The translations under genes and the position numbers were made by a program. Below, one piece after another: positions 3,690-38,267 of a stretch of DNA of 64,000 nucleotides; the stretch's first letter is position 1; each line of letters opens with the position of its first letter. A model generated the notes under the pieces. It was not told where the DNA came from, made no database searches, and worked only from the letters and a program-made list of their open reading frames with translations. Source of the stretch: Gemmatimonadota bacterium (lineage in GTDB: Bacteria > Gemmatimonadota > Gemmatimonadetes > JACCXV01 > JAHWKZ01); the NCBI GenBank assembly GCA_039588915.1, contig JBDGYV010000006.1, forward strand, positions 13,116-77,115, written 5' to 3'.

Positions 3690-3690
3690 A

Positions 3691-5857: not shown

Positions 5858-5865
5858 CGGATACC

Positions 5866-7981: not shown

Positions 7982-8608
7982 ATGCAGGAGCGCATCCTAG
8001 AGTTCATCGTCCCGTTTCTCGACCAGTACGGCTACCTGACGCTGTTTCTCGTGACGTTTCTCGAGACCAGCGCCTTTCTCGGGCTCATCGCCCCGGGCGA
8101 GACGGTAATCGTGCTGTCCGGCTTTTATGCGTTTCGGGGCGTGCTCGATCCGTGGGCGGTTGGGTTGATCGCCATCGTCGGCGCGTTCGCCGGCGATCAG
8201 GTCGGCTACTTGCTCGGCCGTACCTATGGTCACCAAGTGATCAGCCGCTTTGGTCGGTACTTCTTCTTCGACGAGAAACGGTTGTGCGCCACCGAGCACT
8301 ATTACGATCACCACGGTGGCAAGACGGTCCTTATCGGGCGCTTTATGTCGATCCTCCGATCGTTCGGTCCGGTGGTCGCCGGCATTAGCCGCATGTCGTA
8401 CTGGAAGTTTCTGCCGTGGAGCGTGTTGTCGTGTATCGTTTGGGGCACGACGTTCACGTTGGTCGGTTACTTCTTCGGCGCTTCGTGGGATGCGATCGAG
8501 CGCTATCTCGGTTGGGGGGGCGCGGTCGCATTCGTCGTCGGCATCGTGCTCATCATCTGGCTCCTTCACCGTAAACGCGAGCATCAGCTCGAGCAGGAGT
8601 ATGGGTAG
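7982..8608 (+). CDS. DedA/SNARE-associated family membrane protein
   Basis: 208 aa with TM helices and the conserved DedA core (GETVIVLSGF...G.FAGDQVGYLLGR). Confidence 0.85.
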   Translation: MQERILEFIVPFLDQYGYLTLFLVTFLETSAFLGLIAPGETVIVLSGFYAFRGVLDPWAVGLIAIVGAFAGDQVGYLLGRTYGHQVISRFGRYFFFDEKRLCATEHYYDHHGGKTVLIGRFMSILRSFGPVVAGISRMSYWKFLPWSVLSCIVWGTTFTLVGYFFGASWDAIERYLGWGGAVAFVVGIVLIIWLLHRKREHQLEQEYG

Positions 8609-10187: not shown

Positions 10188-10188
10188 C

Positions 10189-10752
10189 ATGAGTGGTCCA
10201 TGCCCATCCCGGTTTTGGTGGGTCCTCGACAACCCGCTGCGCCGCCTCGTGGCCGATCCGGCCAAGGTGGTCGGGCTACTCGGCCTGTCGCCCGATTCAC
10301 GGGTGCTCGAAATCGGTCCCGGCCCAGGATTCTTTAGCGCCGAGATCGCCAAGCGAACCGGTCACAGCCGGCTTCAAGCGGTCGACATCCAGCGCGAGAT
10401 GCTGATCAGAGCGCGCCACAAGCTGCGCAACCAGTTTCTCTGGAATGTCGATTACGTGCAGGCCGATGCCATGGCGCTGCCGTATGCCGACCGATTGTTT
10501 GACGGAGCCTTGCTCATCACGGTGCTGGGCGAAGTCCAGAATCGAGCGTTTTGTCTACGCGAAGTCTGGCGCGTCCTGAAGGCGGGTGGTCTGCTCGTGG
10601 TCGGCGAGCTGCGCGTCGACCCCCACTATATCTCGCCACCGGTACTCCACGAGCTGGCTCGCCGCGAACGCTTCGACTTTGACTACGGCAGCGACCGCCC
10701 CTGGGGCTACACCCACCGATTCCGGAAGCCCGAGGTCACCGACCTGGCGTGA
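10189..10752 (+). CDS. Class I SAM-dependent methyltransferase
   Basis: Motif I VLEIGPGPGFFS and a post-I acidic residue; Methyltransf_11-like. Confidence 0.75.
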   Translation: MSGPCPSRFWWVLDNPLRRLVADPAKVVGLLGLSPDSRVLEIGPGPGFFSAEIAKRTGHSRLQAVDIQREMLIRARHKLRNQFLWNVDYVQADAMALPYADRLFDGALLITVLGEVQNRAFCLREVWRVLKAGGLLVVGELRVDPHYISPPVLHELARRERFDFDYGSDRPWGYTHRFRKPEVTDLA

Positions 10753-10801
10753 TCACGTCCGCTTCCAAACAAGATGGCGCGGGGCTGAAGCCTCCTAAGC
10801 C

Positions 10802-12688: not shown

Positions 12689-12799
12689 ATTTCCTCCTTA
12701 TCGTTCAAATCGAGACCTACAATCTCATGTTTCGAGCGATCAACGTCACGGGGCGGATTGCGACCGTCGGGGCACCATCCATACGTTTGAGCCTCCACT

Positions 12800-13738
12800 A
12801 TGCTTCAATACACCCTGCGCCGCATCGTCCACACGATCCCAGTCCTGCTCGGGGTCCTCGTCGTGACCTTCGTGCTGCTCTACATCGCGCCCGGAGATCC
12901 CGTACTGGCGATGGTCGGCGAGCGGTTCGACCAGGCGACGATCGATCGACTCCGGGCCGAGCTCCATCTCGATGAACCGGTCTGGAGTCAGTTCTACCAT
13001 TATGTCGCCGGTCTGATCCACGGCGACTGGGGCACGTCGTACATCACCGGACAACCGGTGCTCGACGGAATCATGGACCACTTCCCCAAGACGCTCTACC
13101 TGGCGTCGGTGGCTATGGTATTCGCCATCCTCTCCGGGGTGCTGATCGGCGTCGTGTCGGCAGTCAAACAGTCGACCTGGCTCGACGGTTTGGGGATGAC
13201 CGTCGCGCTGGTCGGAATCTCGTTCCCTGTTTACTGGGTGGGGCTAATCCTAATCTTGGTGGTCAGCGTCTCGTGGCGCTTGCTGCCGCCGTCCGGGTTT
13301 GGAGGCGGCGCGCTGCCATATCTCATTCTCCCGGCGCTCACGCTAGGGATGCGATCGACCGCCTATATCGCCCGGTTGACGCGCTCGTCGATGCTTGAGG
13401 TGATTCGCCTCGACTACATACGCACCGCTCGCGCCAAGGGTCTAGGCGAAACGCGGGTGATCGGGAAGCACGCGCTCAAGGCGGCATTGATCCCTGTCGT
13501 CACGGCGATCGGGCTCGATTTTGGCGCGTACCTGTCGGGTTCGGTTCTCACCGAATCAATCTTCGCCTGGCCCGGCATCGGCCGTTTCGCGCTCAACGCC
13601 ATCCTCAAGCGCGATCTGCCGGTCATTCAGGGCACGGTGCTCTTCCTGGCGATCGTGTTTGTGCTCGTCAACCTCGCCGTCGACTTGTTGTACGGATACC
13701 TGGACCCGAGAGTGCGATATGGGCGTGACGCGAGATAA
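12800..13738 (+). CDS. ABC transporter permease, DppB/OppB-like
   Basis: Typical N-terminus (LRRIVHTIPVLLGVLVVTFVLLYIAPGDP) and the BPD_transp_1 EAA-like region. Confidence 0.85.
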   Translation: MLQYTLRRIVHTIPVLLGVLVVTFVLLYIAPGDPVLAMVGERFDQATIDRLRAELHLDEPVWSQFYHYVAGLIHGDWGTSYITGQPVLDGIMDHFPKTLYLASVAMVFAILSGVLIGVVSAVKQSTWLDGLGMTVALVGISFPVYWVGLILILVVSVSWRLLPPSGFGGGALPYLILPALTLGMRSTAYIARLTRSSMLEVIRLDYIRTARAKGLGETRVIGKHALKAALIPVVTAIGLDFGAYLSGSVLTESIFAWPGIGRFALNAILKRDLPVIQGTVLFLAIVFVLVNLAVDLLYGYLDPRVRYGRDAR

Positions 13739-14594
13739 TCGACTGGCAAGCGCGCTGGGCCAGAATCGGCTGGCGATGACCGGGGCAACGATAATGCTGA
13801 TGCTGTTGGTGGTCGGGCTCTTGGGCCCCTGGCTGGCGCCGTACGATCCGCTCGCGCAAAACCTCGCCAGGGGCCTGGAGGGCCCGTCGCGTGATCACTG
13901 GTTCGGCACCGATTCATTCGGGCGCGACATCCTGTCGAGGGTCCTCTACGGAGCCCGAATCTCACTCCTGGTCGGCGTCGCATCGCAAACGATCGCCTTC
14001 ACGCTGGGCGTGTTTCTCGGTGTTGTATCCGGCTACTACGGGGGCCGGATCGAAGGGTTGATCATGCGGTTGGCCGATGTCACGCTGGCCTTCCCGACGC
14101 TGCTGCTATTGATCGCCATCACCGCCGCATTCCAGCCCGGGCTCGGCGTGGTGTTCGTTGCGATCGGCATCGTCGGCTGGGCGGGGCTGGCGCGGCTCGT
14201 CCGCTCGCAGGCGCTGGTCGTGCGTGAGCTGGACTTCGTGCAGGCAGCGCGTGCGCTCGGAATGAGCGACGCCCGGTTGATCACGCGCCACGTGCTTCCC
14301 AACTGTCTCGCCCCGGCGATCATTGCGGTGACGCTAGGGATGGCTAGCGCGATCATGCTCGAGGCGGCGCTATCGTTTATCGGCCTGGGCGCCCAGCCCC
14401 CGACGCCCTCCTGGGGGTCGATGATAGCCGACGGCCGTGATTTTCTGCGCACTGCGCCGTGGATCTCGGTTTTCCCGGGCCTAGCGATCGGTGCCGTCGT
14501 ACTCGGCTTCAATCTGTTCGGGGACGGCCTGCGCGACGCGATGGACCCACGTCTCCAGGGCGGCGCCCGGACCCCCCTACCACGCACCGAGTAG
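13719..14594 (+). CDS. ABC transporter permease, DppC/OppC-like
   Basis: The ATG at 13719 overlaps the end of the upstream permease. N-terminal OppC_N-like segment and TM core. The ORF track's upstream extension is rejected. Confidence 0.85.
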   Translation: MGVTRDNRLASALGQNRLAMTGATIMLMLLVVGLLGPWLAPYDPLAQNLARGLEGPSRDHWFGTDSFGRDILSRVLYGARISLLVGVASQTIAFTLGVFLGVVSGYYGGRIEGLIMRLADVTLAFPTLLLLIAITAAFQPGLGVVFVAIGIVGWAGLARLVRSQALVVRELDFVQAARALGMSDARLITRHVLPNCLAPAIIAVTLGMASAIMLEAALSFIGLGAQPPTPSWGSMIADGRDFLRTAPWISVFPGLAIGAVVLGFNLFGDGLRDAMDPRLQGGARTPLPRTE

Positions 14595-14677
14595 CGCGGG
14601 AAGTGGTTGCCAGGCTTAATATTCAGGGTCCCACGGCGTCCAATTTGTGGCAGGGAAACCCGGAACGGGACGACCCC

Positions 14678-15217
14678 ATGGGCGACGACCAGCTGGTCAA
14701 GCAGGCGCAGGCCGGCGACGCGCAGGCGTTTGGCCAGCTCGTCGACCGTCACCAGCCCGGGATCTTCGGAACGCTGGTCAAGATGACCAGTGACCGGGAT
14801 CTGGCGATGGACCTGACCCAGGACGCGTTCATTCGAGCCTGGGAGCAGCTCGGGACTTTCGAACGCCGATCGGCGTTCTCGACCTGGCTGTATCGAATCG
14901 CGGTCCGGCTGGCGTACGATGCGATGCGGAGTTGCCATCGGCGCGACCATCGCGAGCTCGACGAGCGAATCGCCGACCCCGACCTGGGACCCGACCGACA
15001 GGCCGAGGTCGCCGCGCTGAGCGAGGATTTGAGGCAGCGGATCGAATCGCTGCCTGAGATGCAGCGTGCGATCGTGATCTTGAGGGTATATGACGATCTA
15101 CCGTACAAGGAGATCGCCAACATTCTCAAGACCACGGAGAACAGCGCTCGGGTTTCGTTCCACCACGCGGTGACCCGATTGCGCGACGGATACATGAAGG
15201 AGGCACCACCGCCATGA
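14678..15217 (+). CDS. ECF (sigma-70 family) RNA polymerase sigma factor
   Basis: Region 2 (FGQLVDRHQPGIFGTLVKMTSDRDLAMDLTQDAFIRAWE) and region 4 helix-turn-helix (DLPYKEIANILKTTENSARVSFHHAVTRLR). The true ATG at 14678 lies inside the longer tracked ORF. Confidence 0.85.
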   Translation: MGDDQLVKQAQAGDAQAFGQLVDRHQPGIFGTLVKMTSDRDLAMDLTQDAFIRAWEQLGTFERRSAFSTWLYRIAVRLAYDAMRSCHRRDHRELDERIADPDLGPDRQAEVAALSEDLRQRIESLPEMQRAIVILRVYDDLPYKEIANILKTTENSARVSFHHAVTRLRDGYMKEAPPP

Positions 15218-15777
15218 AACACGTGACCGACCAACAACTGATCGGTTGGCTCGACGAGCCGGAAACCGCCAACACGCCGGCCGCGATTACCACACATCTC
15301 GAGGCGTGCGATCTGTGCGCTCGGCGGCTGGCCGAATTCCAGCGGGTGTTTGAGGCGCTGCGTGTCCAACGGGAGGCACCCTCGGCCGATGAGTTTGCGG
15401 CTCAGCGTGACCGTATCGTAGACGCCATCGCTCCAGAGATGCGGCGCCCAACGGTGCGCTCGCTTCAACGCGGTGGTTGGTGGATTCCGGTTGCAGCCGC
15501 GGCCGCTGTCATCGGTGTGTTCGTGCTGAAGCCCGACGAGCCGGCGGACGCTCCAACCCGGCTCGCCGTTATCGATCAAGCCGATCGAGCGGCTGAAGAC
15601 GCGATCGACGCACTGGAGGGCGAGACCGCATTGGAGGCGATGCTGGCCGTGCTCGACAGCGGGCCCGAGACCCGGGCGTACGAAGCGGCATCGCTGGAAG
15701 AAGAGTTCGCGTTGCTGACCGAGGAAGATCAGGCAGCGATCTTGAACGAACTGTCAACGACGAGTTTCGACCTATGA
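15214..15777 (+). CDS. Zinc-finger (ZAS-type) anti-sigma factor with a single TM helix
   Basis: ATGA overlap with the sigma-factor stop. HLEACDLCARRL (HxxxCxxC) motif and a TM segment WWIPVAAAAAVIGVFVL. Confidence 0.7.
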   Translation: MKHVTDQQLIGWLDEPETANTPAAITTHLEACDLCARRLAEFQRVFEALRVQREAPSADEFAAQRDRIVDAIAPEMRRPTVRSLQRGGWWIPVAAAAAVIGVFVLKPDEPADAPTRLAVIDQADRAAEDAIDALEGETALEAMLAVLDSGPETRAYEAASLEEEFALLTEEDQAAILNELSTTSFDL

Positions 15778-16352
15778 ACCGGACGTTTTACACACTGCTG
15801 ATCGTCATCGCGCTCGGGTTTTCGGGCGGCCCGTCGATCGCTCAGGAAGTCGACACGCTCTCGCGGGCGCGGGTCGAGCAGCTCGAGCAGTTGCGTATCA
15901 GACGGCTGCAGAACGCGCTCGAGCTGAACGACCGCGAAGCCCGCGAGCTGGAAGCGGTTATGCGCGACTTTCGACGCCAAGACCGGGACACCGCGTTCAA
16001 ACGCAGAGACGCTACGCAGCGACTACGCCAAGTGCTTGGGCAGGAGCCCGTCAATGACAACGAAGTGAGCCGGGCACTCGACGAAGTCGAGGCTCAGAGA
16101 CGTGCGACCGAACGTCTACGAGAGCAACAGCGACAGCGGTTGGGACAGCTGCTGACACCTCAGCAGCGCGCCAAGTTCATGCTCTTCAACCGACAGTTCG
16201 ACGCCCGGCTGCGACAGCTGATGGCCGAGCGACGAAGTGATCGTCAGCAGGATCAACGTCGAGACCAGCGCGGCGTGCGTCAGCCACGCGGCTCGAATGC
16301 GCTACAAAACCAGCCCGACCGACCACCCAATCCGCAGCGTCCCAGGGACTAG
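15774..16352 (+). CDS. Periplasmic LTXXQ-motif protein (CpxP/Spy-like)
   Basis: ATGA overlap with the anti-sigma stop. Signal peptide, coiled-coil Arg/Gln-rich sequence, and LLTPQQRAKF (LTXXQ) motif. Confidence 0.55.
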   Translation: MNRTFYTLLIVIALGFSGGPSIAQEVDTLSRARVEQLEQLRIRRLQNALELNDREARELEAVMRDFRRQDRDTAFKRRDATQRLRQVLGQEPVNDNEVSRALDEVEAQRRATERLREQQRQRLGQLLTPQQRAKFMLFNRQFDARLRQLMAERRSDRQQDQRRDQRGVRQPRGSNALQNQPDRPPNPQRPRD

Positions 16353-16354: not shown

Positions 16355-16798
16355 TTACTGCTCCGGAATCGTTCCCCAGTGCTCAGAAAACGACCGCATC
16401 CTCGCCCGTAACTCGGGCTCGATCTGGCGTGGCCTGCCAGTCTCGCGATCGATCATCACTTGCACCGTCGTACCACGCGCGACCAGCCGTTCGCTCTGCT
16501 CGTCGAACAGCTCATAGTCAAGCACAAACGAGCTGGCCCCGATTCTCGACAGACGCGCTTCGACACGCACGGTTTCGCGAAGCACCGCCGCCGACACAAA
16601 ATCGCACTCCGCCCGCGCGACCACAAAGTCGAGCACGTCGTACGAGTAATCGTGATGTAGCTCTTGCCAGTACGCGGTTCTGGCTACTTCGAGATAGGTG
16701 AAGTAAACCGAGTTGTTGACGTGACCCATCGGGTCGAGATCCCGGAAGCGTACCGGGATCTTGACATTGAAGTGGCGCGTGGAGGAGTGGCGGCTCAT
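16355..16798 (-). CDS. Acyl-CoA thioesterase, 4HBT/YbgC family
   Basis: Hotdog-fold signature FRDLDPMGHVNNSVYFTYLEVAR. Confidence 0.75.
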   Translation of the reverse strand: MSRHSSTRHFNVKIPVRFRDLDPMGHVNNSVYFTYLEVARTAYWQELHHDYSYDVLDFVVARAECDFVSAAVLRETVRVEARLSRIGASSFVLDYELFDEQSERLVARGTTVQVMIDRETGRPRQIEPELRARMRSFSEHWGTIPEQ

Positions 16799-16858
16799 GG
16801 GAGCGGCAAGCTAATCCTTCGTTCGAAACGACGCCGACCGATTTGGTTGCAACGATCC

Positions 16859-18190
16859 GTGCCGCTGGCTACTGTTCGCGCAGACGTGCTTAGCTCAAAA
16901 ACCGTCGCCGGAATTCTGCTCGGCATCGTCCTCGTCATCACACCGGGGATGGTCCACGCACAGGCCTTTCTTCAATGGGATCTCGCCGCTCGGCCGGCGG
17001 CGCTGGGCGGAGCCGCTACCGCCATGCCCGACGATCCAAGCACCGTCTTCTACAACCCAGCCGGCATGGCCCATCTGAGCGGCACGTTCGTCCAGGCCGG
17101 CGCAACGCTCGGGGCTGACGCGAGCCGGTTTCGAGGCTTTGGTACCAAAGAGTTTGATCGCGAGTCGAGCCCCACGATCGGCGGCTCGCTTTACATCTCT
17201 CACACCGTCGCCGAAAAGCTGACCGGTGGGATCGCGATCAACACGCCGTGGACGTTAGCGGTCGAGTGGGAGGACCCGAGCGATTTCGTCGGGCGGTTCC
17301 AATCCTTCGACGCCGACCTGCGCTCGATCAACTTCAATCCGGTGGTCGCTGCCGGCCCGTACAACGGCTGGAGTTTCGCGGTCGGAGTCGATGTGTTGAA
17401 CGTGAGGTTTGACATTCATCGCTTCGAGCAAGACCCTGAGCTCAGTGCCTTGGCTGGGCTGGGCCCCGTGGACTTGGCACGCTCCAGAATCGACACCGAC
17501 GGGACCGGCATCGGTTGGAATGGCGCAGCCATGTTCGTACCGTCGGAGCGGCTTGTTTTCGGTGCCCAAGTGCGCAGTGAAATCGAGATCGATCTCAACG
17601 GCGTCGCAGACTTTGTTGGCATTGCGCCCGCCGAACTGCGGGCTGTGCCATTCGGAGAAGGCACCGTCGGCGACTTGCTCGATGAGCGGTTCGTCTCCCA
17701 GAACACGCGCATCCCGTTCACGTTCCCGTCCACGGCGGTCGGCGGCGTCGCCCTTCAACCGATCCCCGAGCTGTGGCTCCGGGCTGACTTGCAATGGGTC
17801 AACTGGAGCGCTGTCGATGCGATCCAGCTCGAGTTCGAAGATCCGACTCTCGATGGCCAGATCGGATTGGACTACGACGACGCATGGTCGGTGCGCGTCG
17901 GCGCCGAAGTCGAGTACCTACCTGAGACTACCCTACGTCTCGGCTATTCGTGGGAGGATACACCAGCAAACGCTATTTCCGTCAATCCCATCGTCCCCGA
18001 TGCGACGCGCAACAGTTATTCAGTCGGACTCGGCTTGCGTGGGTCCGTATTCGATCTCGATTTTGCCTATCGATTCTCGCTGCTCGAGGATCGCGAAGGG
18101 GTCGCCTTTCCCGAAAACGACTCCACGATCGATGGTGTTTACGAAACGGTAGAGCACTGGTTTGGAGCCGCGATTACACGTCGCTTGTAA
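16859..18190 (+). CDS. Outer-membrane transport protein, FadL/OMPP1/TodX family
   Basis: Signal peptide (…GILLGIVLVITPGMVHA-QA) and an N-terminal block with NPAGMAHL typical of FadL-family beta-barrels. The start is GTG around 16859-16890; the tracker's longer N-terminus overlaps the thioesterase gene. Confidence 0.7.
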   Translation: MPLATVRADVLSSKTVAGILLGIVLVITPGMVHAQAFLQWDLAARPAALGGAATAMPDDPSTVFYNPAGMAHLSGTFVQAGATLGADASRFRGFGTKEFDRESSPTIGGSLYISHTVAEKLTGGIAINTPWTLAVEWEDPSDFVGRFQSFDADLRSINFNPVVAAGPYNGWSFAVGVDVLNVRFDIHRFEQDPELSALAGLGPVDLARSRIDTDGTGIGWNGAAMFVPSERLVFGAQVRSEIEIDLNGVADFVGIAPAELRAVPFGEGTVGDLLDERFVSQNTRIPFTFPSTAVGGVALQPIPELWLRADLQWVNWSAVDAIQLEFEDPTLDGQIGLDYDDAWSVRVGAEVEYLPETTLRLGYSWEDTPANAISVNPIVPDATRNSYSVGLGLRGSVFDLDFAYRFSLLEDREGVAFPENDSTIDGVYETVEHWFGAAITRRL

Positions 18191-18243: not shown

Positions 18244-18693
18244 ATGAGACTATCCAACGAACAGCGCGATAGCTTCATCGCCCAATGCCGGGCGGCTGGG
18301 CTATCGGTAACCCACCAGCGGTTGGCGATCTTTGAGGCGGTATTGGCGAACTGCAATCGCCACCCTTCGGCCGAGATCATTTACCAGACCGTCCGTGAGC
18401 GTTACCCCACGATCTCGTTCAATACGATCTACAAGAACCTCGAGATTTTCGAAGAGCTAGGAATCGTAGTAAAGGTCAACCCGCTTTACAACGAAGCGCG
18501 TTACGATGTCGACGTCCGACCCCACCATCATCTGATCTGCCGTCAGTGCAAGAAGATCGTTGACGTGCACGATGAGAAGCTGGGCCGCGTTCCACCACCG
18601 ATCGACGCCGAGAACGGCTTCAAGGTGGAGAATTGGACGGTCCAGTTCACTGGCCTGTGCGCCGACTGCCAGCCAGCGTCAGCAGTCGTTTGA
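18244..18693 (+). CDS. Fur-family transcriptional regulator (Fur/Zur/PerR-like)
   Basis: Winged-helix N-terminus, HHHLIC motif, and two CxxC pairs (CRQC, CADC) for structural zinc. Confidence 0.85.
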   Translation: MRLSNEQRDSFIAQCRAAGLSVTHQRLAIFEAVLANCNRHPSAEIIYQTVRERYPTISFNTIYKNLEIFEELGIVVKVNPLYNEARYDVDVRPHHHLICRQCKKIVDVHDEKLGRVPPPIDAENGFKVENWTVQFTGLCADCQPASAVV

Positions 18694-18752: not shown

Positions 18753-18817
18753 TGCACCCCGTCTAATCGGGGTAGGATTGTGTTTGCCAGCCTCGACCAT
18801 ACCGCTTGGAGGTTGAG

Positions 18818-19399
18818 ATGTCGTTGAAGCTCGCTCGGTTTGGAGTCCCACCCTTGGTCATTGCCGTTGGGACGGTCGCAGCGTTTGTCGGCAATCGCGA
18901 CGAGTCCGTGCGTGAAGCCACAGTGGCGCCGATGACTGCGCCAACCGCGGCTAACGACGAGCCGGTCGATGGTTTTGCCCTCGGTCCGGCTGACGCGGCA
19001 CCCGAGCTAGTCGTCCTCGATGACCTAGCAGCCGAGGAGGCGAAAACAACCCCACGCCGAGTCGCGGCACCCCAAGGTCAGACCGTTCCGGTCGAAACCG
19101 TCGCGTCCCCGACCGCAACGGTAGTTACTAGCGAGGCCTTGTCGATCGATGCCCCATCGCTGGCTTTGGAACAGCCCAACCCGCGGCGCTCCATTCGTGT
19201 CGATCCGCGGCGCGATACTGCGCGCGGTGGCATCTCGACCGTCGCCGACACCGGTGGACGGCGAGGCGGTTTTCGTGTCGGCATCTCGGTTGGCGGGGAC
19301 TGTCGCCCCAGCGGCGTAGCCGGGACGACGCTCGTCTTCGATCGCGGCGCCGGACTGAGCGGTGTCGGCCTCGGTGGACGGCGCGGCGTCCGGTTCTAG
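18818..19399 (+). CDS. Secreted/membrane-anchored hypothetical protein, paralog A (Ala/Pro/Thr-rich linker, Gly-rich C-terminus)
   Basis: GGAGG Shine-Dalgarno 5 nt upstream of the ATG at 18818. Hydrophobic N-terminus. Shares the motif AAPE[LV]VVL.D.A.E…R.V..P…TV with the downstream gene. Confidence 0.45.
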   Translation: MSLKLARFGVPPLVIAVGTVAAFVGNRDESVREATVAPMTAPTAANDEPVDGFALGPADAAPELVVLDDLAAEEAKTTPRRVAAPQGQTVPVETVASPTATVVTSEALSIDAPSLALEQPNPRRSIRVDPRRDTARGGISTVADTGGRRGGFRVGISVGGDCRPSGVAGTTLVFDRGAGLSGVGLGGRRGVRF

Positions 19400-19513: not shown

Positions 19514-20212
19514 ATGACCCGTCCGCGTACGCTGATTCCGGCCGCGGTATTGATCGCCGGCGTCCTCGCGTGTCAAGGCGAGCCCGCGTCACGCGACACC
19601 ACCCCACGCGTGGTGTTCAAGTCCTCGCAGTCCACAGCCCTGGCGAACACGGATCAGGGCATGCCGATGGGCCCCAACGGTGCGGCGCCCGAAGTCGTAC
19701 TGCTCGGTGACCCAGCGCCGGAAACGCGCGCCGAGAAGCGTACCGTCAAGCAGCCCAAGCCAGGCCCGACGGTGATCTACCACACGGTGTACATCGAAGC
19801 ACCAGCTGAGGCTACAACCGAGCCTGAGGAATCGGGCCAGTCGATCCCCAAGATTGTCGACGAGCCGATCGCAGAGCCGGCAGCCACGCAGGTCGTCCCC
19901 GATCCGGAACCAGCCGACACGCCTGACGTCGCTGACAGCCCGAATACACCGGATCCGGTCGCGACCGCACCTCCGACGGTGACCCCGACCACGTTCCCAA
20001 GCGGCGGCGCGAACCGCGCCGAGGACGCCATCGTGGGCGCCGCTGTTGGCGCTTCGATCGGTGCAATTCTCGGTGGACGGGGTGGCGCAATGGCGGGTGG
20101 TATTGGTGGCGCGATCGGTGGAGCCACCAGTGGACGTGGCGGTGGGATTTTGGGGGGCATTCTCGCTGCCAGCTCGCGCGGGCGGTTGCCTCGCCGCGGC
20201 GGCGGTTGCTGA
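19514..20212 (+). CDS. Lipoprotein, paralog B, with a C-terminal glycine-zipper (SlyB/17-kDa antigen-like) segment
   Basis: Lipobox LIAGVLAC and the same GGAGGTTG…ATG ribosome-binding context as paralog A. C-terminal GAAVGASIGAILGG…GGIGGAIGG glycine zipper. Confidence 0.55.
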   Translation: MTRPRTLIPAAVLIAGVLACQGEPASRDTTPRVVFKSSQSTALANTDQGMPMGPNGAAPEVVLLGDPAPETRAEKRTVKQPKPGPTVIYHTVYIEAPAEATTEPEESGQSIPKIVDEPIAEPAATQVVPDPEPADTPDVADSPNTPDPVATAPPTVTPTTFPSGGANRAEDAIVGAAVGASIGAILGGRGGAMAGGIGGAIGGATSGRGGGILGGILAASSRGRLPRRGGGC

Positions 20213-20245: not shown

Positions 20246-21526
20246 CTAGACCGGGAACCCGCCCTCGCGCAGGAACGCCACCGTGCGTTCGGTGGCACCC
20301 GCCATTTGCTCCAGTGCAGCCTTGGCCGCTTTGCCAGCGGTATCGTCCGGCAGCCACGCCCGCCAACAGGCGGCTAGCTCCGCCGGTGAATCGACGACCG
20401 CCAATCCCCCCGACCGCTCCAGAACATCGACCTCATAGGGCTGGCCGTGGTTGGCCCCGATCGTCACCGGGACCCCGTGCGCAGCAGGCTCCATCACATT
20501 GTGGACCGCGCCTCCAAAGCTCCCGCCGACGTAGGCCAGATCGGCAATCGCATACAACCGATACAGCACCCCTACCCGATCGACGATCACCACCGCGCAC
20601 TCCGCGAGCCCCTCCCAGGTACCAAACCGGCAGGTCTCGAGTCCGAACCCCCGGGCCCGAGACTCAAGCCGCGCAATCGCCTTATCGGTCGGTTCGTGCG
20701 GCGCTACGATCGCGATCGTGCTGGGATGCGTCGTTCTGAGCCGAGCAAGCGCCGCCAACAAGACTCGCTCGTCGGCCGGCCACGTGCTACCACCCACGAT
20801 AACTGGGCCGGCACCCTCCGGCGGCTGCCACTCTGCCCTGTCAGATACCGCTTCGCGCGCTCTCTCCAGCGTCACGTCGGCGCGAGTGTCCCCGGCGACA
20901 CGCACCTTCCTCGCGTCAACGCCGAGATCCACTAATCGCTCAGCGTCCGCGGCCGCGATCGTCGCGACCGCGTCAAAACGGTGATACAGATCCCGGGTCA
21001 GTCCCCGCACTGGCCATTTGACTCGCGCTGAACCCACCAGACGACAACACGCTTGTCCCAACATGACACCCGCATCCGACGCCGCCCAGACCAGGTTCGG
21101 CCACGTCTCACCACCCACCAGCACGAGCGCGTCCGGCGTCAGGAGCTCAACTAGCTGACGTGTCTGTGCCGGGTAGTCGAGCGGCAGATAGTCGATGGCG
21201 TCGGGCACGTCCCAGGAGTGGACGAGCCGCTCAGCGGAGGGTGAGAAGTGCGTAAAAAAGATCACCGCGTCCGGCTGGGCGCGGCGGATCGCCGTTGCTA
21301 GCGGTCGCGCTTGGAGCGTTTCTCCGGCGCTGGCCGCGTGCAGCCAGATGACCGGGGACCGCCCGGCGGTCGCTTCAGCCGCCCGCTGCCAACGCTCCAG
21401 CACGCCCTGGCGCGCGGCGATCCCGCGGTCGACCTTTGGGACGGCTCGCGTCACAAGCGGCGTTGCTACGCGGGTCACCGGAACGATGAGCCGGTTGTAG
21501 ATCTGTCGCTGCCACAGTGGTTTCAC
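20246..21526 (-). CDS. waaA: 3-deoxy-D-manno-octulosonic acid (Kdo) transferase
   Basis: N-terminal WLHAASAGE motif and overall Glycos_transf_N plus GT-B architecture of KdtA/WaaA. Confidence 0.85.
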   Translation of the reverse strand: MKPLWQRQIYNRLIVPVTRVATPLVTRAVPKVDRGIAARQGVLERWQRAAEATAGRSPVIWLHAASAGETLQARPLATAIRRAQPDAVIFFTHFSPSAERLVHSWDVPDAIDYLPLDYPAQTRQLVELLTPDALVLVGGETWPNLVWAASDAGVMLGQACCRLVGSARVKWPVRGLTRDLYHRFDAVATIAAADAERLVDLGVDARKVRVAGDTRADVTLERAREAVSDRAEWQPPEGAGPVIVGGSTWPADERVLLAALARLRTTHPSTIAIVAPHEPTDKAIARLESRARGFGLETCRFGTWEGLAECAVVIVDRVGVLYRLYAIADLAYVGGSFGGAVHNVMEPAAHGVPVTIGANHGQPYEVDVLERSGGLAVVDSPAELAACWRAWLPDDTAGKAAKAALEQMAGATERTVAFLREGGFPV

Positions 21527-21656: not shown

Positions 21657-21935
21657 TTAGATGGCGTCGACGCGAGTGATGCCGCGCACAGTCTCTCTGA
21701 GCCGCTGTTCTATGCCTTGCTTGAGCGTCATCGTGCTCATGGGGCACCCGCCGCAGGCTCCCATCATCCGCAGGGTCACCACTCCATCCTCGATGTCGAG
21801 CAGTTCTACGTTGCCGCCGTCCATGGCTATCGCCGGCCGGATCGTGTCCAGTGCCGCTTCGACCTTGGCCCACAGCGCCTGGCTCTCATCCACATCGGCT
21901 TGCTCGGTCGGGCTGTCGATCTTCGTATCGGTCAT
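21657..21935 (-). CDS. NifU-like Fe-S cluster assembly protein (Nfu C-terminal domain)
   Basis: 92 aa with the GACGGCPMSTMTLK CxxC motif of the NifU C-terminal domain. Confidence 0.8.
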   Translation of the reverse strand: MTDTKIDSPTEQADVDESQALWAKVEAALDTIRPAIAMDGGNVELLDIEDGVVTLRMMGACGGCPMSTMTLKQGIEQRLRETVRGITRVDAI

Positions 21936-22079
21936 CGTCGCGTCATCCTATGTTGAGCGTTTAGAGACATCAAATTTACGGGTTCCTACACCCGATCGGC
22001 AACCACGTGCCCCGCGGCGATCACGGGTCTCGACGGGACCGTACCCGCCAGCCCGGGGTATGCGTGGGCTCGAGCCTCG

Positions 22080-23648
22080 ATGACTGAGACCAAACGCATA
22101 CTCTGGGTCGACGACGAAGTCGCCGGCCTCAAGTCACACATTCTGTTTCTCGAGAATCGTGGGTTCGAGGTGACCACCGCACCCAACGGCGAAGACGCCC
22201 TCGCTCTCATCTCCGAAAACGGCTATGACTGCGTGCTGCTCGATGAACAGATGCCAGGCATGCGCGGGATGACCGTGTTTCGGCGCATCCGAGACAGCCA
22301 CCCACGCTTACCGGTGGTGATGGTGACCAAGAGCGAAGAAGAGGGTCTCATGGATCAGGCGATCGGCAGTCGAGTCGACGACTACCTCGTCAAGCCGATC
22401 AACCCGAATCAAGTCCTGTCGGTCCTCAAGCGCCTCCTCGAAGGGTCGCGAATCCGTCATCAAACAATCGCCCAAGCGTTTAGCCAGCGTTACATCGAAC
22501 TCGACGAGCTTCGGAAGACACGATCAACGTGGGACGACTGGGTTCAGCTGTATCGTGAGCTCCTCGGATGGGAGCTTCGATTGATCGATGCCGGCGAGCA
22601 GGGATTGTTGGAGAGCCAGGGCGAGCTGAGCAAAGCCGCCAATAGCGACTTCAGCAGCTTCGTCCAGACCCATTACCGAGAGTGGATCGCGTCAAAGCCG
22701 GGCTCGCGGCCGTTGCTCTCGCCGGACCTGGTGACGGCTCACGTTGTCCCGCTTCTCAGAGCCGATCCAGGGCCGGTCTTCCTCGTGTTGATCGACTGTC
22801 TGCGACTCGATCAATGGTTGGCGATTCGAGACACGCTGGAGGCTCACTTCACGATCGACGAGGCGCACGCGGGGTCGATACTGCCGTCGGCCACACCCTA
22901 CTCCCGCAACGCCATCTTCAGCGGTTGGCTACCCCGGCAGATAGCCGAGAAACGACCTGATCTGTGGCTCGGCGACGCGGACGTGGAAGGCTCGCTCAAC
23001 CCACACGAGCGCGAACTGTTAGAGCTCCAATTAGCGCGCAAGGATGCGGGCGATATCGGATCGGTCCAGTACACCAAGGTGTTCACGGCGACCGAGGGCG
23101 CGACAGCGCTCAAGAAACTGCCGCAATGCTTCCAGAGCCGCTTGTCGGCGTTCGTCTTTAACTTTATCGACGTGCTCACGCACGGCCGGTCGGAATCCGA
23201 GATCCTGCTCGAGATCGCGCCTGACCAACAGGCGTTTCGATCATTGACCCGCTCGTGGTTTCTGCACTCGGCGCTCTACGACTTGCTCATGCAGTCCGCC
23301 CGTCACGGTGTGCGCGTCGTGCTCACCACCGACCACGGTTCGGTTCACTGCATGCGTCCGGCTACCGTCTACGCACAACGCGACGCTTCGCAGAACCTGC
23401 GGTACAAGTTCGGCAACAACATTCGCTCGGAGGAGCCGGAGGCTGCGTTTCGGATCGCCGATCCGGGTCGCATCGGCCTACCTAACATGGGCTTCAACGT
23501 CGCCGCCCTGATGGCGGTCGAGGATTACTACTTCGTCTACCCGACCAAGCTCCGCGAGTACCAAAACCGCTACTATGGCGCCTTTCTTCACGGCGGAATC
23601 TCGCTCGAGGAGCTGATCCTGCCGGTGGCCACGCTGACGCCGCGCTAG
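22080..23648 (+). CDS. Response regulator with CheY-like receiver fused to a PglZ (alkaline-phosphatase-like) domain; PorX-like
   Basis: Receiver N-terminus (ILWVDDE…DCVLLDEQMPGMRG…VVMVTKS…YLVKP) followed by about 390 aa of PglZ-type domain. The length (522 aa) and architecture match the T9SS regulator PorX. Confidence 0.8.
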   Translation: MTETKRILWVDDEVAGLKSHILFLENRGFEVTTAPNGEDALALISENGYDCVLLDEQMPGMRGMTVFRRIRDSHPRLPVVMVTKSEEEGLMDQAIGSRVDDYLVKPINPNQVLSVLKRLLEGSRIRHQTIAQAFSQRYIELDELRKTRSTWDDWVQLYRELLGWELRLIDAGEQGLLESQGELSKAANSDFSSFVQTHYREWIASKPGSRPLLSPDLVTAHVVPLLRADPGPVFLVLIDCLRLDQWLAIRDTLEAHFTIDEAHAGSILPSATPYSRNAIFSGWLPRQIAEKRPDLWLGDADVEGSLNPHERELLELQLARKDAGDIGSVQYTKVFTATEGATALKKLPQCFQSRLSAFVFNFIDVLTHGRSESEILLEIAPDQQAFRSLTRSWFLHSALYDLLMQSARHGVRVVLTTDHGSVHCMRPATVYAQRDASQNLRYKFGNNIRSEEPEAAFRIADPGRIGLPNMGFNVAALMAVEDYYFVYPTKLREYQNRYYGAFLHGGISLEELILPVATLTPR

Positions 23649-23666: not shown

Positions 23667-25496
23667 ATGAAGACGTACCTCCGCATGCTGGGCTATCTGA
23701 GACCTCACGTTGGGCTGTTGGGACTGTCGTTTCTGCTGATGGTGCTGTTCGCACTGGTCGACGGCTTCTCGATCGTGGTGCTGATCCCGTTCCTGCAGGT
23801 GCTTTTCGGCGGCCCGTCAGCGACCACGGTTCCAGTCGCACCGGATCACTTCATGGGGCAGATCGAACACTTCTTCAAGTATGAGCTGTTCACGTTTCTG
23901 CAGGAGCCCACAGCCCTGGGTACGCTGACCAACGTTTGCCTGGTTATCCTTGCGGTCTACTTCGTCAAAGCGGTTCTCGGTTACTTCCAGCACTTTCTGC
24001 CGCAGGTAGTCCTCGAGCGTGCGCTGCGCGATCTGCGAAACCAGTTCTTCGCGCACATCCAGCGACTGTCGTTCCTCTACTTCCAGCGAACTCGATCAGG
24101 CCAGCTGATGTCGATCCTAACCCATGACATACAGCTCCTGAAGAACGCTATATCGACTGGTGTGTTTCGCGTCATCCGACACACTCTCGAGATAGCAATA
24201 ACCCTTCTCATCCTGGTGGCGATCTCTTGGCGGTTGACGCTTCTCGCAGTTTTGATCCTGCCTCCGATCGCGTGGATCGCAGTGCTCCTCGCGCGCAAGC
24301 TGCGTCGCGTCAACCGGCAAATGCTGCGCAAGCTGGGCGACATCACCAGCGCGCTCCAAGAGAACGTGGCTGGTATTCGAATCGTGCGCGCGTTCAGCGC
24401 CGAACACTTCGAACAACAGCGATTCAGCCGTGACAACGAAGCATACCAACGAAACATGGTAAGATCGAGAAAGTACGCGCTTTTGGGATCCCCGGTTTCC
24501 GAGTTTCTGCTCGCTGGTGCTGTCGTCCTGATCCTGTACTTCGGCGGGCGTATGATTTTGCTCGATGGCACGCTCGCGCCAGAGACGTTCTTCGTGTTCC
24601 TGGTTGCGTCGCTCAAGCTCTCGAGTCCGCTCAAGTACCTGTCCAAGCTCAATGAAGACGTACAGCCCGCATTAGCCGGCTGCGAGCGGATCTTCGCGGT
24701 GCTCGACACTGAGCCTGAGGTCGTAGAAGCCAAGCGCCCGATACCGATTTCGGGGTTCGAACAGCAGATCTGGTATGACAACGTCTGCTTCTCGTACGAA
24801 GAGGGCGACGGCCCCGTCCTTCACGATGTTTCGTTCACGATCCAAAGGGGTGAGGTCGTTGCCCTGGTGGGCCCCTCGGGTAGCGGTAAGTCAACGCTGG
24901 TGGATCTGCTACCGCGATTCTACGATCCGACATCGGGACGGATTGAATTCGACGGTCACGACTTGCGAGAGGTCAGCCTCAAGGACCTGCGGGGTCAGAT
25001 GGGGATCGTGACCCAAGACGTCATACTGTTTCACGATACCGTGGCCAACAACATCGCATACGGCGAAAAACCAGACCGAAAGCGATTGAGAGAATCTGCT
25101 AGGGCGGCGAATGCGATCGACTTCATCGAAGCGCTCCCTCGGGGCTTTGAAACCGTAATCGGCGAGCGAGGCGTTCGATTCTCTGGCGGCCAGCGGCAGC
25201 GGATCGCGATCGCGAGAGCGATCTACAAGAATCCGCCGATTCTCATCTTTGACGAGGCCACGTCGGCGCTCGATTCGGAGAGCGAGATGCTCGTCCAGCA
25301 GGCAGTGGCAAGGCTGATGGAGAACCGCACCGCGATCGTGATCGCGCACCGGCTGTCGACGGTGCTGCACGCCGACCAGATCATTGTCGTCGAGAGCGGT
25401 CGAGTGGTGGAGACGGGCTCGCACGCCGACCTCCTCGCCCGCGCCGGCCGCTACAGCCGGCTGTACGAGCTTCAGTTCGCCGAGCTACCGGCTTGA
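23667..25496 (+). CDS. ABC exporter with fused TMD-NBD, MsbA/lipid A exporter-like
   Basis: Six-TM N-terminal domain; Walker A GPSGSGKST, signature LSGGQRQR, Walker B ILIFDEATSALD. Confidence 0.85.
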   Translation: MKTYLRMLGYLRPHVGLLGLSFLLMVLFALVDGFSIVVLIPFLQVLFGGPSATTVPVAPDHFMGQIEHFFKYELFTFLQEPTALGTLTNVCLVILAVYFVKAVLGYFQHFLPQVVLERALRDLRNQFFAHIQRLSFLYFQRTRSGQLMSILTHDIQLLKNAISTGVFRVIRHTLEIAITLLILVAISWRLTLLAVLILPPIAWIAVLLARKLRRVNRQMLRKLGDITSALQENVAGIRIVRAFSAEHFEQQRFSRDNEAYQRNMVRSRKYALLGSPVSEFLLAGAVVLILYFGGRMILLDGTLAPETFFVFLVASLKLSSPLKYLSKLNEDVQPALAGCERIFAVLDTEPEVVEAKRPIPISGFEQQIWYDNVCFSYEEGDGPVLHDVSFTIQRGEVVALVGPSGSGKSTLVDLLPRFYDPTSGRIEFDGHDLREVSLKDLRGQMGIVTQDVILFHDTVANNIAYGEKPDRKRLRESARAANAIDFIEALPRGFETVIGERGVRFSGGQRQRIAIARAIYKNPPILIFDEATSALDSESEMLVQQAVARLMENRTAIVIAHRLSTVLHADQIIVVESGRVVETGSHADLLARAGRYSRLYELQFAELPA

Positions 25497-26200
25497 CGCC
25501 GGGAATGGTCGATCCCCCCAACACGCGCGCCAGCAAACCAAAGAGCGATAGCTACGCCTACAAGAAGCAGTTCTATCGCGACCCCGATGTCGCCGCCCAT
25601 TACGAGGCCGAACGATTTGCGGGGCGCAATAAGGAACGGCGCAACCGACGCAAGTGGGTCACGATCCAACGCGCGTTGGCTGAAACCGACGGTGTACAAT
25701 CGATCCTCGACATGCCGTGCGGGACGGGTCGATTCACCAGTCATCTGACCGGCGAAGGATACAGCGTCGTGGGGAGCGACATCGCGTTCGAGATGATGCA
25801 TATGGCACAAGACAGTCTGGGCGCAGTGCCAGGGTTGCAAGGATACGTGCAGGCGGAAGCTGAGAACCTGCCATTTCGCGACCGTGCGTTCGACTGCGTC
25901 GTCTCGATCCGGTTCCTGTTCCACGTCGATCCGTCCACTCGCATCGCCATGCTGCGTGAGATGGTGCGGGTCGCCCGCTGGTTAGTGGTCGACTATCGGC
26001 ACAAGTACAGCTACCACTACGCGCGCTGGAGGGTCCGGCGTGCCCTGGGGTTGACCGACCGACAGTTTGCCCGGGTCTCACGGCGCCAGCTCGAGGAAGA
26101 GTTGCGTCAGGCGGGCGTTGTTCTAAGGCGGATTCACCCCGTCGCGCGGATCTTCTCCGACAAGTGGATCATCCTCGCCGAGGCTCGCCATTCCGACTAA
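25493..26200 (+). CDS. Class I SAM-dependent methyltransferase
   Basis: Motif I LDMPCGTGRF and a Methyltransf_11-like core (ENLPFRDRAFDCVV). The start overlaps the msbA-like stop. Confidence 0.75.
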   Translation: MTPGMVDPPNTRASKPKSDSYAYKKQFYRDPDVAAHYEAERFAGRNKERRNRRKWVTIQRALAETDGVQSILDMPCGTGRFTSHLTGEGYSVVGSDIAFEMMHMAQDSLGAVPGLQGYVQAEAENLPFRDRAFDCVVSIRFLFHVDPSTRIAMLREMVRVARWLVVDYRHKYSYHYARWRVRRALGLTDRQFARVSRRQLEEELRQAGVVLRRIHPVARIFSDKWIILAEARHSD

Positions 26201-26252: not shown

Positions 26253-26855
26253 GTGGGCACTTTCGGTGAGGGTGGTCGAAGCATCGTCTACGAGGGCGAT
26301 TGGCACGGCGAGCGAGTCGCGATCAAGGTGTATAAACCGTACGGGATGGAGAAACACCGCCGGAAGCACCCAGAGCCGCTGGCCGAGTTCGAGTATCGGC
26401 GCAACCGGGCATTCTTCGAAGCCCCCGGGTTATCGCGCTACGTCGCGCGGCCGATCGGATTCTTTCACACCCCGGGAGTTTCGGCACTGATCCAAGAGCC
26501 ACTGGACGGTGAGTTGTACTACTTCTACTACCAGGAACGGAAGGGGGCGCTACCGCTCGGGTTGTTCGGCCACATCGAGCAGATTGTGGAGTACGCCCAC
26601 GCGGCGGGGCTGTTCGACATCGACCTTCACGCGATGAACGTCATGATCGTCGAGGAGAACGGTCAACCGATCCCTAAGCTGTTTGACTTCAACCTCGTTC
26701 CATGGCACGAACGGATCCGCACGCCATTGGTAACGCTCTTGCTCAAGTCGGGGATCAGGAACTCGAAACGTCGCGATCTGCGAATGCTGCGCGACTTCCA
26801 CGACTTCTCACGCAAGGTCCCGCGGTTGTTGCGCTACTTCCCCTCGACCAGCTGA
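26253..26855 (+). CDS. Small protein-kinase-like enzyme, LPS kinase (Kdo/WaaP) family
   Basis: Gly-rich loop (GTFGEGGRSIVYEG), a VAIK lysine, and a catalytic-loop DLHAMNVMI plus DFN. Only a GTG start is available; the N-terminus is unusually short. Confidence 0.55.
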   Translation: MGTFGEGGRSIVYEGDWHGERVAIKVYKPYGMEKHRRKHPEPLAEFEYRRNRAFFEAPGLSRYVARPIGFFHTPGVSALIQEPLDGELYYFYYQERKGALPLGLFGHIEQIVEYAHAAGLFDIDLHAMNVMIVEENGQPIPKLFDFNLVPWHERIRTPLVTLLLKSGIRNSKRRDLRMLRDFHDFSRKVPRLLRYFPSTS

Positions 26856-38252: not shown

Positions 38253-38267
38253 TCGTCTCTCCCTCTC

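Follow-up and report, generated by a model that had tools for sequence, protein, structure and literature searches.

PorX has been investigated as the master switch governing a secretion system, type IX (T9SS), in Bacteroidota pathogens, and also as a drug target. It binds PorL/GldL and SigP and acts as a phosphodiesterase on pGpG and cyclic oligonucleotides; in Porphyromonas gingivalis its outputs are the PorL/GldL motor and an ECF sigma factor. The cargo of the T9SS is anchored to LPS. Lipid A/core operons that contain msbA include msbA-lpxK in E. coli and the waa clusters with GT9 heptosyltransferases and WaaA, and we know of no classical LPS operon in which a response regulator is the first gene. 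The active site in the alkaline phosphatase superfamily (APS) domain of PorX consists of the catalytic Thr272 and the zinc ligands Asp239, Asp415 and His416 (PMC9757075). In P. gingivalis both PorX and PorY are orphans (PMC10951265, PMC11320123), and UbK1, a TsaE family protein encoded 3′ of porX, phosphorylates PorX (PMC13241743). In the same organism lipid A 1-phosphatase activity needs a working T9SS (PMC12704123).

Here we describe a porX gene in a 64,000-nucleotide stretch of DNA (the window) from an uncultured Gemmatimonadota bacterium, whereas the P. gingivalis and Flavobacterium johnsoniae proteins with which we compare its product (PgPorX and FjPorX) come from Bacteroidota. The closest relatives that bear a name are Gemmatimonadota MAGs.

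Identity of the receiver-PglZ protein

An earlier note on this DNA had read the product of 22080–23648 as a fusion of a CheY-type receiver with a PglZ domain, and both domains were recovered in the Pfam survey (Table 1). With 522 residues the protein falls within the 500–530 amino acids of the PorX architecture (CheY receiver, helical bundle and PglZ/APS domain), and it has both architecture and length in common with PorX of P. gingivalis (PGN_1019; PDB 7PV7/7PVA/7PVK) and of F. johnsoniae (Fjoh_2906; PDB 8TED, 8P6F). The NCBIfam equivalog model for PorX (NF052313, T9SS_RR_PorX) scored 583.1 bits against a cutoff of 300, with model positions 2–513 of 513 covered. The comparison with P. gingivalis PorX suggested in the note was run with phmmer and gave a full-length match to the structure 7PV7 (E 3e-129), as it did to the F. 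johnsoniae structure 8TED (E 9e-121). Both alignments run end to end and score 435 and 407 bits respectively, residues 5–522 of the window protein being collinear with both structures, and a three-way alignment puts global identity to FjPorX at ~37%.

Residues needed for function are likewise kept. In the receiver domain the acidic pocket (D11/D12), D55, T83 and K105 are invariant across 14 homologues, and the phospho-acceptor D55 (codon 22242–22244) aligns with D58 of P. gingivalis and D54 of F. johnsoniae. In the PglZ domain D239, T272 (the catalytic threonine, codon 22893–22895), D418/H419 and H504 are invariant within the family, and H368 is conserved; by alignment, the catalytic Thr272 and the zinc ligands described for PorX (PMC9757075) are identical in the window protein, PgPorX and FjPorX. 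The family-model score, the end-to-end structure alignments and the retained active residues all bear out the orthology that the earlier note had raised as a possibility, and we conclude from these sequence comparisons that the gene product is a true PorX orthologue. Bona fide PorX now extends well beyond the Bacteroidota, which touches on the disputed phylogenetic range of the T9SS.

The note had also drawn attention to the lack of a cognate kinase nearby. The absence itself was confirmed: Pfam found neither HisKA nor HATPase_c in the called ORFs of the window, neither domain was seen within 10 kb past either of its edges, a six-frame tblastn search of the window with a kinase core found no histidine kinase, and the same type of search gave PorX as the sole receiver domain in the window. 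A missing nearby kinase is, however, no peculiarity of this locus but the norm for PorX, since PorX and PorY of P. gingivalis are both orphans (PMC10951265, PMC11320123).

Table 1. Features of the porX locus, with positions counted from the first nucleotide of the window
Feature	Coordinates	Strand	Evidence or remark
Putative Kdo transferase (WaaA/KdtA family)	20246–21526	−	Pfam Glycos_transf_N, 131 bits
NifU-like Fe-S domain protein, divergent from porX	21657–21935	−	Pfam NifU, E 5e-29
Divergent intergenic region nifU-like/porX, 144 bp	21936–22079		Presumed promoter region of the porX-msbA operon
porX orthologue	22080–23648	+	522 aa, ATG start; receiver, helical linker, PglZ/alkaline-phosphatase-superfamily phosphodiesterase domain
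Receiver domain	22098–22427	+	aa 7–116; Pfam Response_reg, E 4e-26
PglZ/alkaline-phosphatase-superfamily domain	22776–23645	+	Pfam PglZ, aa 233–426, E 3e-17
MsbA-like lipid A/LPS-core ABC exporter	23667–25496	+	18 nt 3′ of porX; TIGR02203 top full-length match
Class I SAM-dependent methyltransferase	25493–26200	+	Pfam Methyltransf_11/25; start overlaps msbA stop by 4 nt
Minimal protein-kinase-like protein, 200 aa	26253–26855	+	Sub-threshold Pkinase match

The porX gene cluster and its products

ORF coordinates and Pfam matches agree with the earlier reading that porX has a NifU-like gene on one side and an MsbA-like exporter on the other. The gene is the first of a co-directional unit, porX-msbA-methyltransferase-kinase-like, in which successive genes are separated by 18, −4 and 52 nt, and from this spacing we infer co-transcription of the four as an operon. 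A consensus scan found no terminator-like site between the genes of this unit; the two terminator-like matches on the plus strand lie within the coding sequences of porX and msbA, and with three matches in all, fewer than the 4.0 expected from shuffled sequences, the scan carries little information. The divergent intergenic region upstream of porX is presumed from its position to hold the promoter, and a promoter scan, likewise of little information, found no match to the sigma-70 consensus within it. No tRNA or Rfam element was found in the window. Among the called ORFs, that at 14749–15579 on the minus strand is probably spurious, since in public gene calls that region carries an ECF sigma factor on the plus strand. 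The window encodes two ECF sigma factors.

The note had further described the surrounding block as containing a Kdo transferase, an MsbA-like exporter, a SAM methyltransferase and a Kdo-kinase-like enzyme. Of these, a gene of the Kdo transferase family, one for an MsbA-like exporter and one for a SAM methyltransferase were seen with Pfam and NCBIfam. For the Kdo transferase the Glycos_transf_N score far exceeds its cutoff of 23.9, and NCBIfam Kdo-transferase models are the top matches, at 168 bits against an equivalog cutoff of 524. The exporter has the ABC_membrane plus ABC_tran architecture of a half-transporter (Pfam), and its top full-length match, TIGR02203 (MsbA_lipidA), scores 552 bits, just under the equivalog cutoff of 602. 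This model is likewise the top match yet below cutoff for six of seven exporters from distant lineages, the HepA_fam model tying with it in one. The second ABC exporter of the window is SmdA-like. The product of 23667–25496 is thus the best MsbA candidate, and the LPS gene context supports the assignment.

The fourth label is not supported. The protein encoded by 26253–26855 had no match to the Kdo/WaaP family (PF06293) in Pfam, and its match to the generic Pkinase model is sub-threshold (26.9 bits against 31.7). Its best PDB matches, in both sequence and profile searches, are generic protein kinases, and two of the 35 members of its family match Kdo/WaaP weakly (E 0.0056). A Kdo kinase was accordingly rejected as a candidate function, Pfam, NCBIfam, PDB and representative searches all giving a generic minimal kinase fold only. 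The family is rare (58 representatives at E ≤ 1e-10 in an exhaustive representative search). In two proteins (P0245 and P0247) the methyltransferase is fused to the kinase-like domain, and at one further locus (L170) a methyltransferase also lies 3′ of msbA. We therefore regard the product of 26253–26855 as a rare minimal kinase-fold protein, predicted from the existing fusions to be the functional partner of the methyltransferase encoded upstream.

Conservation of the association with LPS genes

Outside the Bacteroidota, msbA lies directly 3′ of porX, on the same strand and at 0–400 nt, in 67 of 73 related loci; all of these belong to a single phylum, and since they are related by descent the counts exaggerate how many independent events there were. 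The median gap between the two genes is 13 nt, and such short same-strand gaps indicate co-transcription. At the other six loci different LPS genes adjoin porX (GT9 heptosyltransferase-like or LptD-like). Of the loci with flanks of 2.5 kb or more on both sides, every one (59/59) has a gene for MsbA, GT9, an LpxL-like protein, KdtA or an LptD-like protein within ~3 kb of porX. Further clades show the arrangement GT9 <> porX-GT9(-msbA-MT), and the PorX tree has msbA-linked loci in each of its two major subclades. The PorX proteins of the related loci are ~47–56% identical to that of the window, they belong to different orders, and the wider flanks of their genes are wholly different.

Genes for kdtA, nifU (nifU-like, for example, in L002 and L005), the methyltransferase and the kinase-like protein are found near porX in close relatives only. 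Hence, of the kdtA-msbA-methyltransferase-kinase neighbourhood whose conservation the earlier note had asked about, the porX-msbA core and the adjacency to LPS genes extend to related genomes, and the rest does so only at short range. Chance adjacency, which the note had considered as grounds for dismissing the arrangement, does not agree with the 67 loci in which msbA follows porX. Throughout the non-Bacteroidota PorX clade, then, porX keeps its place beside LPS genes, and this is not due to chance. The pairing of porX with msbA, or its direct adjacency to other LPS genes where msbA is missing, holds across Gemmatimonadota.

The neighbourhoods of Bacteroidota porX genes are of another kind, and the earlier remark that an LPS setting is not the usual one was justified. 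None of 80 Bacteroidota-type loci has msbA or a GT9 gene adjoining porX, and in P. gingivalis and close relatives of F. johnsoniae no LPS gene adjoins it. Instead, tsaE/ubK lies directly 3′ of porX in 53 of 69 Bacteroidota loci, that of P. gingivalis being a further example, and lpxD-lpxC/fabZ adjoin porX in 43 of 56. In the window tsaE/ubK1 is absent from the position directly 3′ of porX, which msbA occupies; we take tsaE/ubK1 to be a contextual hallmark and not part of the definition of the family.

Interpretation and comparison with known systems

The reading we prefer, with a probability of roughly 0.6, is that the window encodes a genuine PorX whose conserved genomic partner is an LPS flippase rather than the UbK/TsaE kinase of Bacteroidota, and that this PorX is coupled to lipid A-core export. 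The coupling is suggested because porX appears to be co-transcribed with msbA and is embedded among lipid A-core genes. An unlinked PorY-type kinase would phosphorylate PorX on Asp55, and the phosphorylated protein would dimerise, as in P. gingivalis PorX; its zinc-dependent PglZ phosphodiesterase and its protein-protein outputs would then switch on, again as in the P. gingivalis protein. The regulator would be coupled, in its expression or its activity, to the export of lipid A-core, the molecule that ultimately anchors T9SS cargo and whose remodelling in P. gingivalis is T9SS-dependent. A literature search found no paper on a link between PorX and MsbA. Taken together, the phylum-wide porX-msbA pairing, the other LPS neighbours and the lipid A neighbourhood in Bacteroidota lead to a testable hypothesis, namely that signalling through PorX is linked with the synthesis of LPS and its export. 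This would fit both the anchoring of T9SS cargo to LPS and the T9SS-dependent remodelling of lipid A in P. gingivalis.

Gemmatimonadota PorX could instead serve LPS and outer-membrane biogenesis first and foremost, as a regulator or an enzyme, and act independently of the T9SS, the T9SS role being one lineage-specific output; the T9SS may then be absent from Gemmatimonadota genomes. We consider this unlikely. It accords with the presence of LPS genes near porX at all 59 adequately flanked non-Bacteroidota loci, with a literature that mostly restricts the T9SS to Bacteroidota, and with what was found of the system itself. The Pfam survey gave no T9SS core or cargo domain in the called ORFs of the window, and no T9SS genes were seen in ~84 kb of genome (the window plus 10 kb past each edge). 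An iterative profile of T9SS sorting domains had no match in the window or in Gemmatimonadota flanks, and GldL and GldM (PDB sequences, recovered with an approximate bait) had none in the collected porX loci. Across 87 flanking regions the one T9SS gene is at L077, the deepest branch of the non-Bacteroidota PorX clade, where a protein with a T9SS type-A sorting domain is encoded directly upstream of porX. This locus speaks against independence from the T9SS, as do the pass of the window protein under a curated PorX equivalog model and its complete set of functional residues; moreover, the absence of T9SS genes from small flanks says little. When the L077 sorting domain was compared with a large protein collection a single match was obtained, by a search method that is insensitive for such domains. 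The literature on the T9SS in Gemmatimonadota comes down to one sentence of a review, which names Gemmatimonadetes among the phyla that may have the system (PMC11285876).

A more far-reaching proposal is that throughout the FCB superphylum regulators of the PorX family have an ancestral coupling to the biogenesis and export of lipid A/LPS-core. Gemmatimonadota PorX would act directly on or with MsbA and gate LPS flipping, either through its receiver or through its PglZ phosphodiesterase, whose substrate would be a nucleotide signal or else a lipid precursor that is phosphorylated, and control of the T9SS would be only one downstream output of an LPS-centred envelope checkpoint. We think this unlikely.

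It is also conceivable that the adjacency of porX to LPS genes is synteny inherited from a chance ancestral placement and carries no functional meaning. The loci do all belong to one phylum and cannot be counted as independent, the kdtA, nifU, methyltransferase and kinase-like genes are not conserved, and model Bacteroidota lack the linkage. However, the linkage has persisted between orders at ~47–56% PorX identity while the wider flanks changed wholly, and the neighbour is always an LPS gene although its identity varies (msbA, GT9 or LptD-like, with kdtA or LpxL-like genes nearby). A constant kind of neighbour whose identity changes suggests selection for the association rather than a frozen gene order. 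In addition, the ~13-nt same-strand gaps indicate co-transcription, and a different lipid A gene set adjoins porX in many Bacteroidota. We therefore hold meaningless synteny to be quite improbable. That we are dealing with a PglZ phosphatase of the BREX type, or of another kind of phage defence, with a receiver domain and unrelated to PorX, has next to no probability and is ruled out by family scores and architecture: the protein's PglZ domain matches the BREX_PglZ_3 model weakly but does not group with BREX PglZ (84 bits against a cutoff of 250, compared with 583 against 300 for the PorX model), BREX PglZ proteins have at least 600 residues (PMC9757075) whereas this one has 522 and a receiver domain, and no BREX partner domains came up among the window's called ORFs when these were surveyed with Pfam.

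The genuine PorX coupled to lipid A-core export that we favour can be set against four known systems. With BREX PglZ phosphatases the window protein has in common the PglZ fold of the alkaline phosphatase superfamily; the BREX proteins differ in being larger, in lacking a receiver domain and in being accompanied by BREX partner genes, and the window locus is without such partners. The locus resembles the msbA-containing lipid A/core operons in that an MsbA-like half-transporter clusters with Kdo transferase and GT9 heptosyltransferase-like genes, and also with GT4 glycosyltransferases and LpxL-like acyltransferases. It departs from classical LPS operons, as far as we know, in being headed by a response regulator gene, and also in having an exporter that scores just below the MsbA equivalog threshold. 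Like porX of P. gingivalis and F. johnsoniae, the window gene has no cognate kinase gene alongside; unlike them, it is embedded among genes for Kdo transfer, LPS core and LPS export.

The closest parallel is the porX-ubK1 pair of P. gingivalis (PMC13241743), where a same-strand gene directly 3′ of porX is also conserved lineage-wide. There the adjacency correctly predicted a functional partner, and because this partner proved to be a real PorX kinase the gene-adjacency approach is vindicated. At the locus described here the conserved partner would be an ABC lipid exporter and not a kinase.

Identity and setting of the PorX protein

The PorX encoded in the window is complete, its active sites are intact, and its gene heads a compact porX-msbA(-methyltransferase-kinase-like) unit. 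Pfam assigns a receiver domain to aa 7–116 and a PglZ domain to aa 233–426, confirming the position and the receiver-PglZ fusion described in an earlier note. The protein matches the NCBIfam PorX equivalog NF052313 over the full model length (583 bits, cutoff 300), and a PDB search aligned it over its entire length with PorX of P. gingivalis (7PV7; 435 bits, E 3e-129) and of F. johnsoniae (8TED; 407 bits). Residue identity was judged by three-way alignment with these two proteins. The phospho-acceptor Asp55 corresponds to P. gingivalis D58 and F. johnsoniae D54, the catalytic Thr272 is the same residue in all three, the Zn ligands Asp239 and Asp418/His419 correspond to D239 and D415/H416 as defined for P. 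gingivalis PorX (PMC9757075), and the SH(A/G)R and HGG motifs are common to all three. The functional residues are unchanged in all 14 diverse homologues compared. The protein is a PorX orthologue and as such a new member of an established family, which current NCBI models would name PorX; its public annotation is only 'CheY-like chemotaxis protein'.

The nearest named homologue (81% identity) is from the Gemmatimonadota MAG GCA_035524965.1, and further ones, about 50–53% identical, are from Gemmatimonadales and Longimicrobiales. Close relatives of other window proteins are likewise labelled Gemmatimonadota by NCBI, and genes identical to those of the window lie on metagenome contigs from JGI, the longest being 84.7 kb. 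The window has a G+C content of ~62%; neither tRNAs nor Rfam-recognisable RNAs occur in it. The kdtA-porX block is preceded, a few kb upstream, by genes for an outer-membrane transporter of the FadL/TodX family (16664-18190, +) and a regulator of the Fur family (~18244-18693, +), and between the latter and kdtA are two Gly/Pro-rich ORFs without domain match (18806-19399 and 19514-20212).

Features of the window (nucleotide positions)
Feature	Position	Strand	Remarks
Metal_resist/Spy-like protein	15774-16352	+	one of two small ORFs after second ECF sigma factor
Kdo-transferase-family gene	20246-21526	-	upstream, divergent from porX
NifU-like gene	21657-21935	-	upstream, divergent from porX
porX ORF	22080-23648	+	ATG start, 522 aa
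MsbA-like ABC exporter	23667-25496	+	18 nt past porX stop
SAM methyltransferase	25493-26200	+	4-nt overlap with msbA stop
Kinase-like ORF	26253-26855	+	200 aa; 52-nt gap after methyltransferase
zf-HC2 anti-sigma factor	39146-39865	-	
ECF sigma factor	39876-40394	-	
Second ABC_membrane/ABC_tran exporter	62586-64000 (right window edge)	+	complete in L173 (locus of the same genome), 12792-14423

Conserved linkage of porX to LPS genes

We compared 80 species-representative loci, almost all from Gemmatimonadota, with further places added by exact-protein look-ups. Among the 73 non-redundant loci having at least 1.9 kb downstream of porX, 67 carry an msbA homologue 0–400 nt after porX on the same strand (median gap 13 nt). 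The exceptions are L002 (the 81%-identical relative), where msbA follows a 3.2-kb insertion; L006, L007, L086 and L087, where a gene of the GT9 (heptosyltransferase) family lies at +40 to +121 nt; and L077, with an LptA/LptD-like gene at +3 kb. The L002 insertion encodes, at 12215-14703, a DUF4325 protein and a small HATPase_c protein, besides two further ORFs. A gene for MsbA, GT9, an LpxL-like acyltransferase, KdtA or an LptD-like protein lies within ~3 kb of porX in every one of the 59 loci that extend 2.5 kb or more to either side, commonly as GT9 <> porX-msbA-(LpxL-like or GT4/GT2 genes) or as GT9 <> porX-GT9(-msbA-methyltransferase). The linkage of porX to LPS genes is thus conserved. 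Of the other genes that the earlier note placed around porX, however, kdtA, nifU and those for the methyltransferase and the kinase-like protein stay near it in close relatives only.

MsbA_lipidA is the top full-length NCBIfam match of the porX-adjacent exporter in six of seven distant lineages (500–557 bits, just below the equivalog cutoff of 602 bits), and in one of the seven a model of the HepA family scores equally well. The other exporter in the window is SmdA-like (437 bits, against 401 for the MsbA model) and was ruled out as an MsbA candidate. The label 'MsbA-like' for the porX-adjacent exporter is therefore well founded, although not proven. A PF16949 (ABC_tran_2) membrane protein at 55395-57245 (-) matched no NCBIfam family; since public gene calls on L173 divide this ORF between two genes, with one for an ABC ATPase alongside (~57.2-57.9 kb), the region suggests an uncharacterised ABC transporter.

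The label 'Kdo-kinase-like' for the last gene of the unit is not supported: its product has a sub-threshold Pfam Pkinase match and, in the PDB, weak matches to generic protein kinases, and only 2 of 35 family members touch the Kdo/WaaP family, weakly. The family is rare: a search of 1.84 billion proteins gave 58 representatives at E<=1e-10. Because methyltransferase and kinase-like protein are naturally fused in P0245 and P0247, two homologues (N-terminal half 52–54% identical to the window methyltransferase, C-terminal half 43–45% to the kinase-like protein), the two are predicted to act together as one functional unit. An LPS-related substrate is plausible from context.

Candidate partners and a possible role

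The window has no histidine kinase, as the earlier note had stated, either by a Pfam survey of the called ORFs or by six-frame tblastn with a kinase core as query, and the only receiver domain detected by tblastn is that of PorX. In P. gingivalis PorX is an orphan, as is PorY (PMC10951265, PMC11320123), so a missing kinase near porX is expected. In L057, a Gemmatimonadaceae MAG locus, a 1005-aa hybrid histidine kinase and an 868-aa ORF, whose C-terminal sequence by eye resembles a receiver domain, lie at 4822-10402, directly upstream of porX (10521-12068); the former is a possible cognate PorX kinase in that lineage.

SigP, an ECF sigma factor, relays PorX signalling in P. gingivalis, and for this reason the ECF sigma factor at 39876-40394 in the window is a candidate PorX partner. 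It belongs to a cluster at 37458-40394 (-) with the anti-sigma factor and two DUF4097 'toastrack' proteins; L002 has the same kind of set at 3547-5659, 4–6 kb upstream of porX. In the region ~14645-16352 (+), public gene calls on the identical contig show another ECF sigma factor and, after it, two small ORFs; an ORF called at 14749-15579 (-) is probably spurious.

As the likeliest mechanism we suggest that an unlinked kinase would phosphorylate Asp55, upon which PorX may dimerise and switch on its PglZ phosphodiesterase and protein-protein outputs. Co-transcription of porX and msbA could couple the module to the export of lipid A-core, and LPS supply might thereby be coordinated with type IX secretion or envelope remodelling. 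From the orthology of PorX we infer that the organism may be T9SS-bearing. [quoted passage not shown] An LPS-only role of PorX, without T9SS, is unlikely, albeit worth weighing: most papers confine T9SS to Bacteroidota, and no T9SS core or cargo domains were found in the window, 10 kb past either edge or the Gemmatimonadota flanks searched, a small sample of each genome. Inert synteny of porX and LPS genes is improbable. What appears to be new is a phylum-wide operonic fusion of porX with msbA and a wider association with lipid A and LPS genes, the support for both being comparative only; we found no paper tying PorX to msbA or lipid A gene neighbourhoods. A BREX-type PglZ enzyme is rejected, the best BREX model scoring 84 bits against a cutoff of 250 where the PorX equivalog is passed.

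Comparison with Bacteroidota

As a control, the same analysis was applied to 80 Bacteroidota-type metagenome loci (L088-L167; PorX 55–92% identical to that of F. johnsoniae). In none of the 80 does msbA or GT9 adjoin porX, which bears out the view that the LPS placement is unlike the usual porX context. Conserved neighbours here are tsaE, immediately downstream in 53/69 loci, and a divergent HD-domain gene; in 43 of the 56 loci with enough upstream sequence the latter is followed by lpxD, a bifunctional lpxC/fabZ and an EF-P-like gene beside porX, lpxD and lpxC/fabZ passing NCBIfam cutoffs. P. gingivalis and Parabacteroides have porX-tsaE without lipid A genes nearby, and the closest F. johnsoniae relatives have porX without lpx genes.

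Two clades emerge when 165 PorX sequences are placed in a neighbour-joining tree: one is of the Bacteroidota type, with tsaE and/or lpx beside porX, the other of the Gemmatimonadota type, with msbA, GT9, kdtA or LptD as neighbours. Linkage to msbA is found in both major subclades of the latter and is therefore probably ancestral there. Its deepest branch is L077 (DASYSL010000114.1, 2-11952, labelled Candidatus Eisenbacteria). Here the gene immediately upstream of porX encodes a protein with a T9SS type-A sorting domain (TIGR04183, 25 bits, cutoff 23), a tsaE-like gene lies downstream, and that for the 1492-aa LptA/LptD-like LPS-transport protein is ~3 kb downstream, an arrangement intermediate between those of the two groups.

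In P. gingivalis ubK1, encoding a TsaE/YjeE-family kinase, always follows porX, and UbK1 phosphorylates PorX (PMC13241743, 2026); conservation of gene order next to porX has thus already pointed to a genuine partner of the regulator. The conserved gene after porX is ubK1/tsaE in P. gingivalis, whereas in the window it is an msbA-like exporter.
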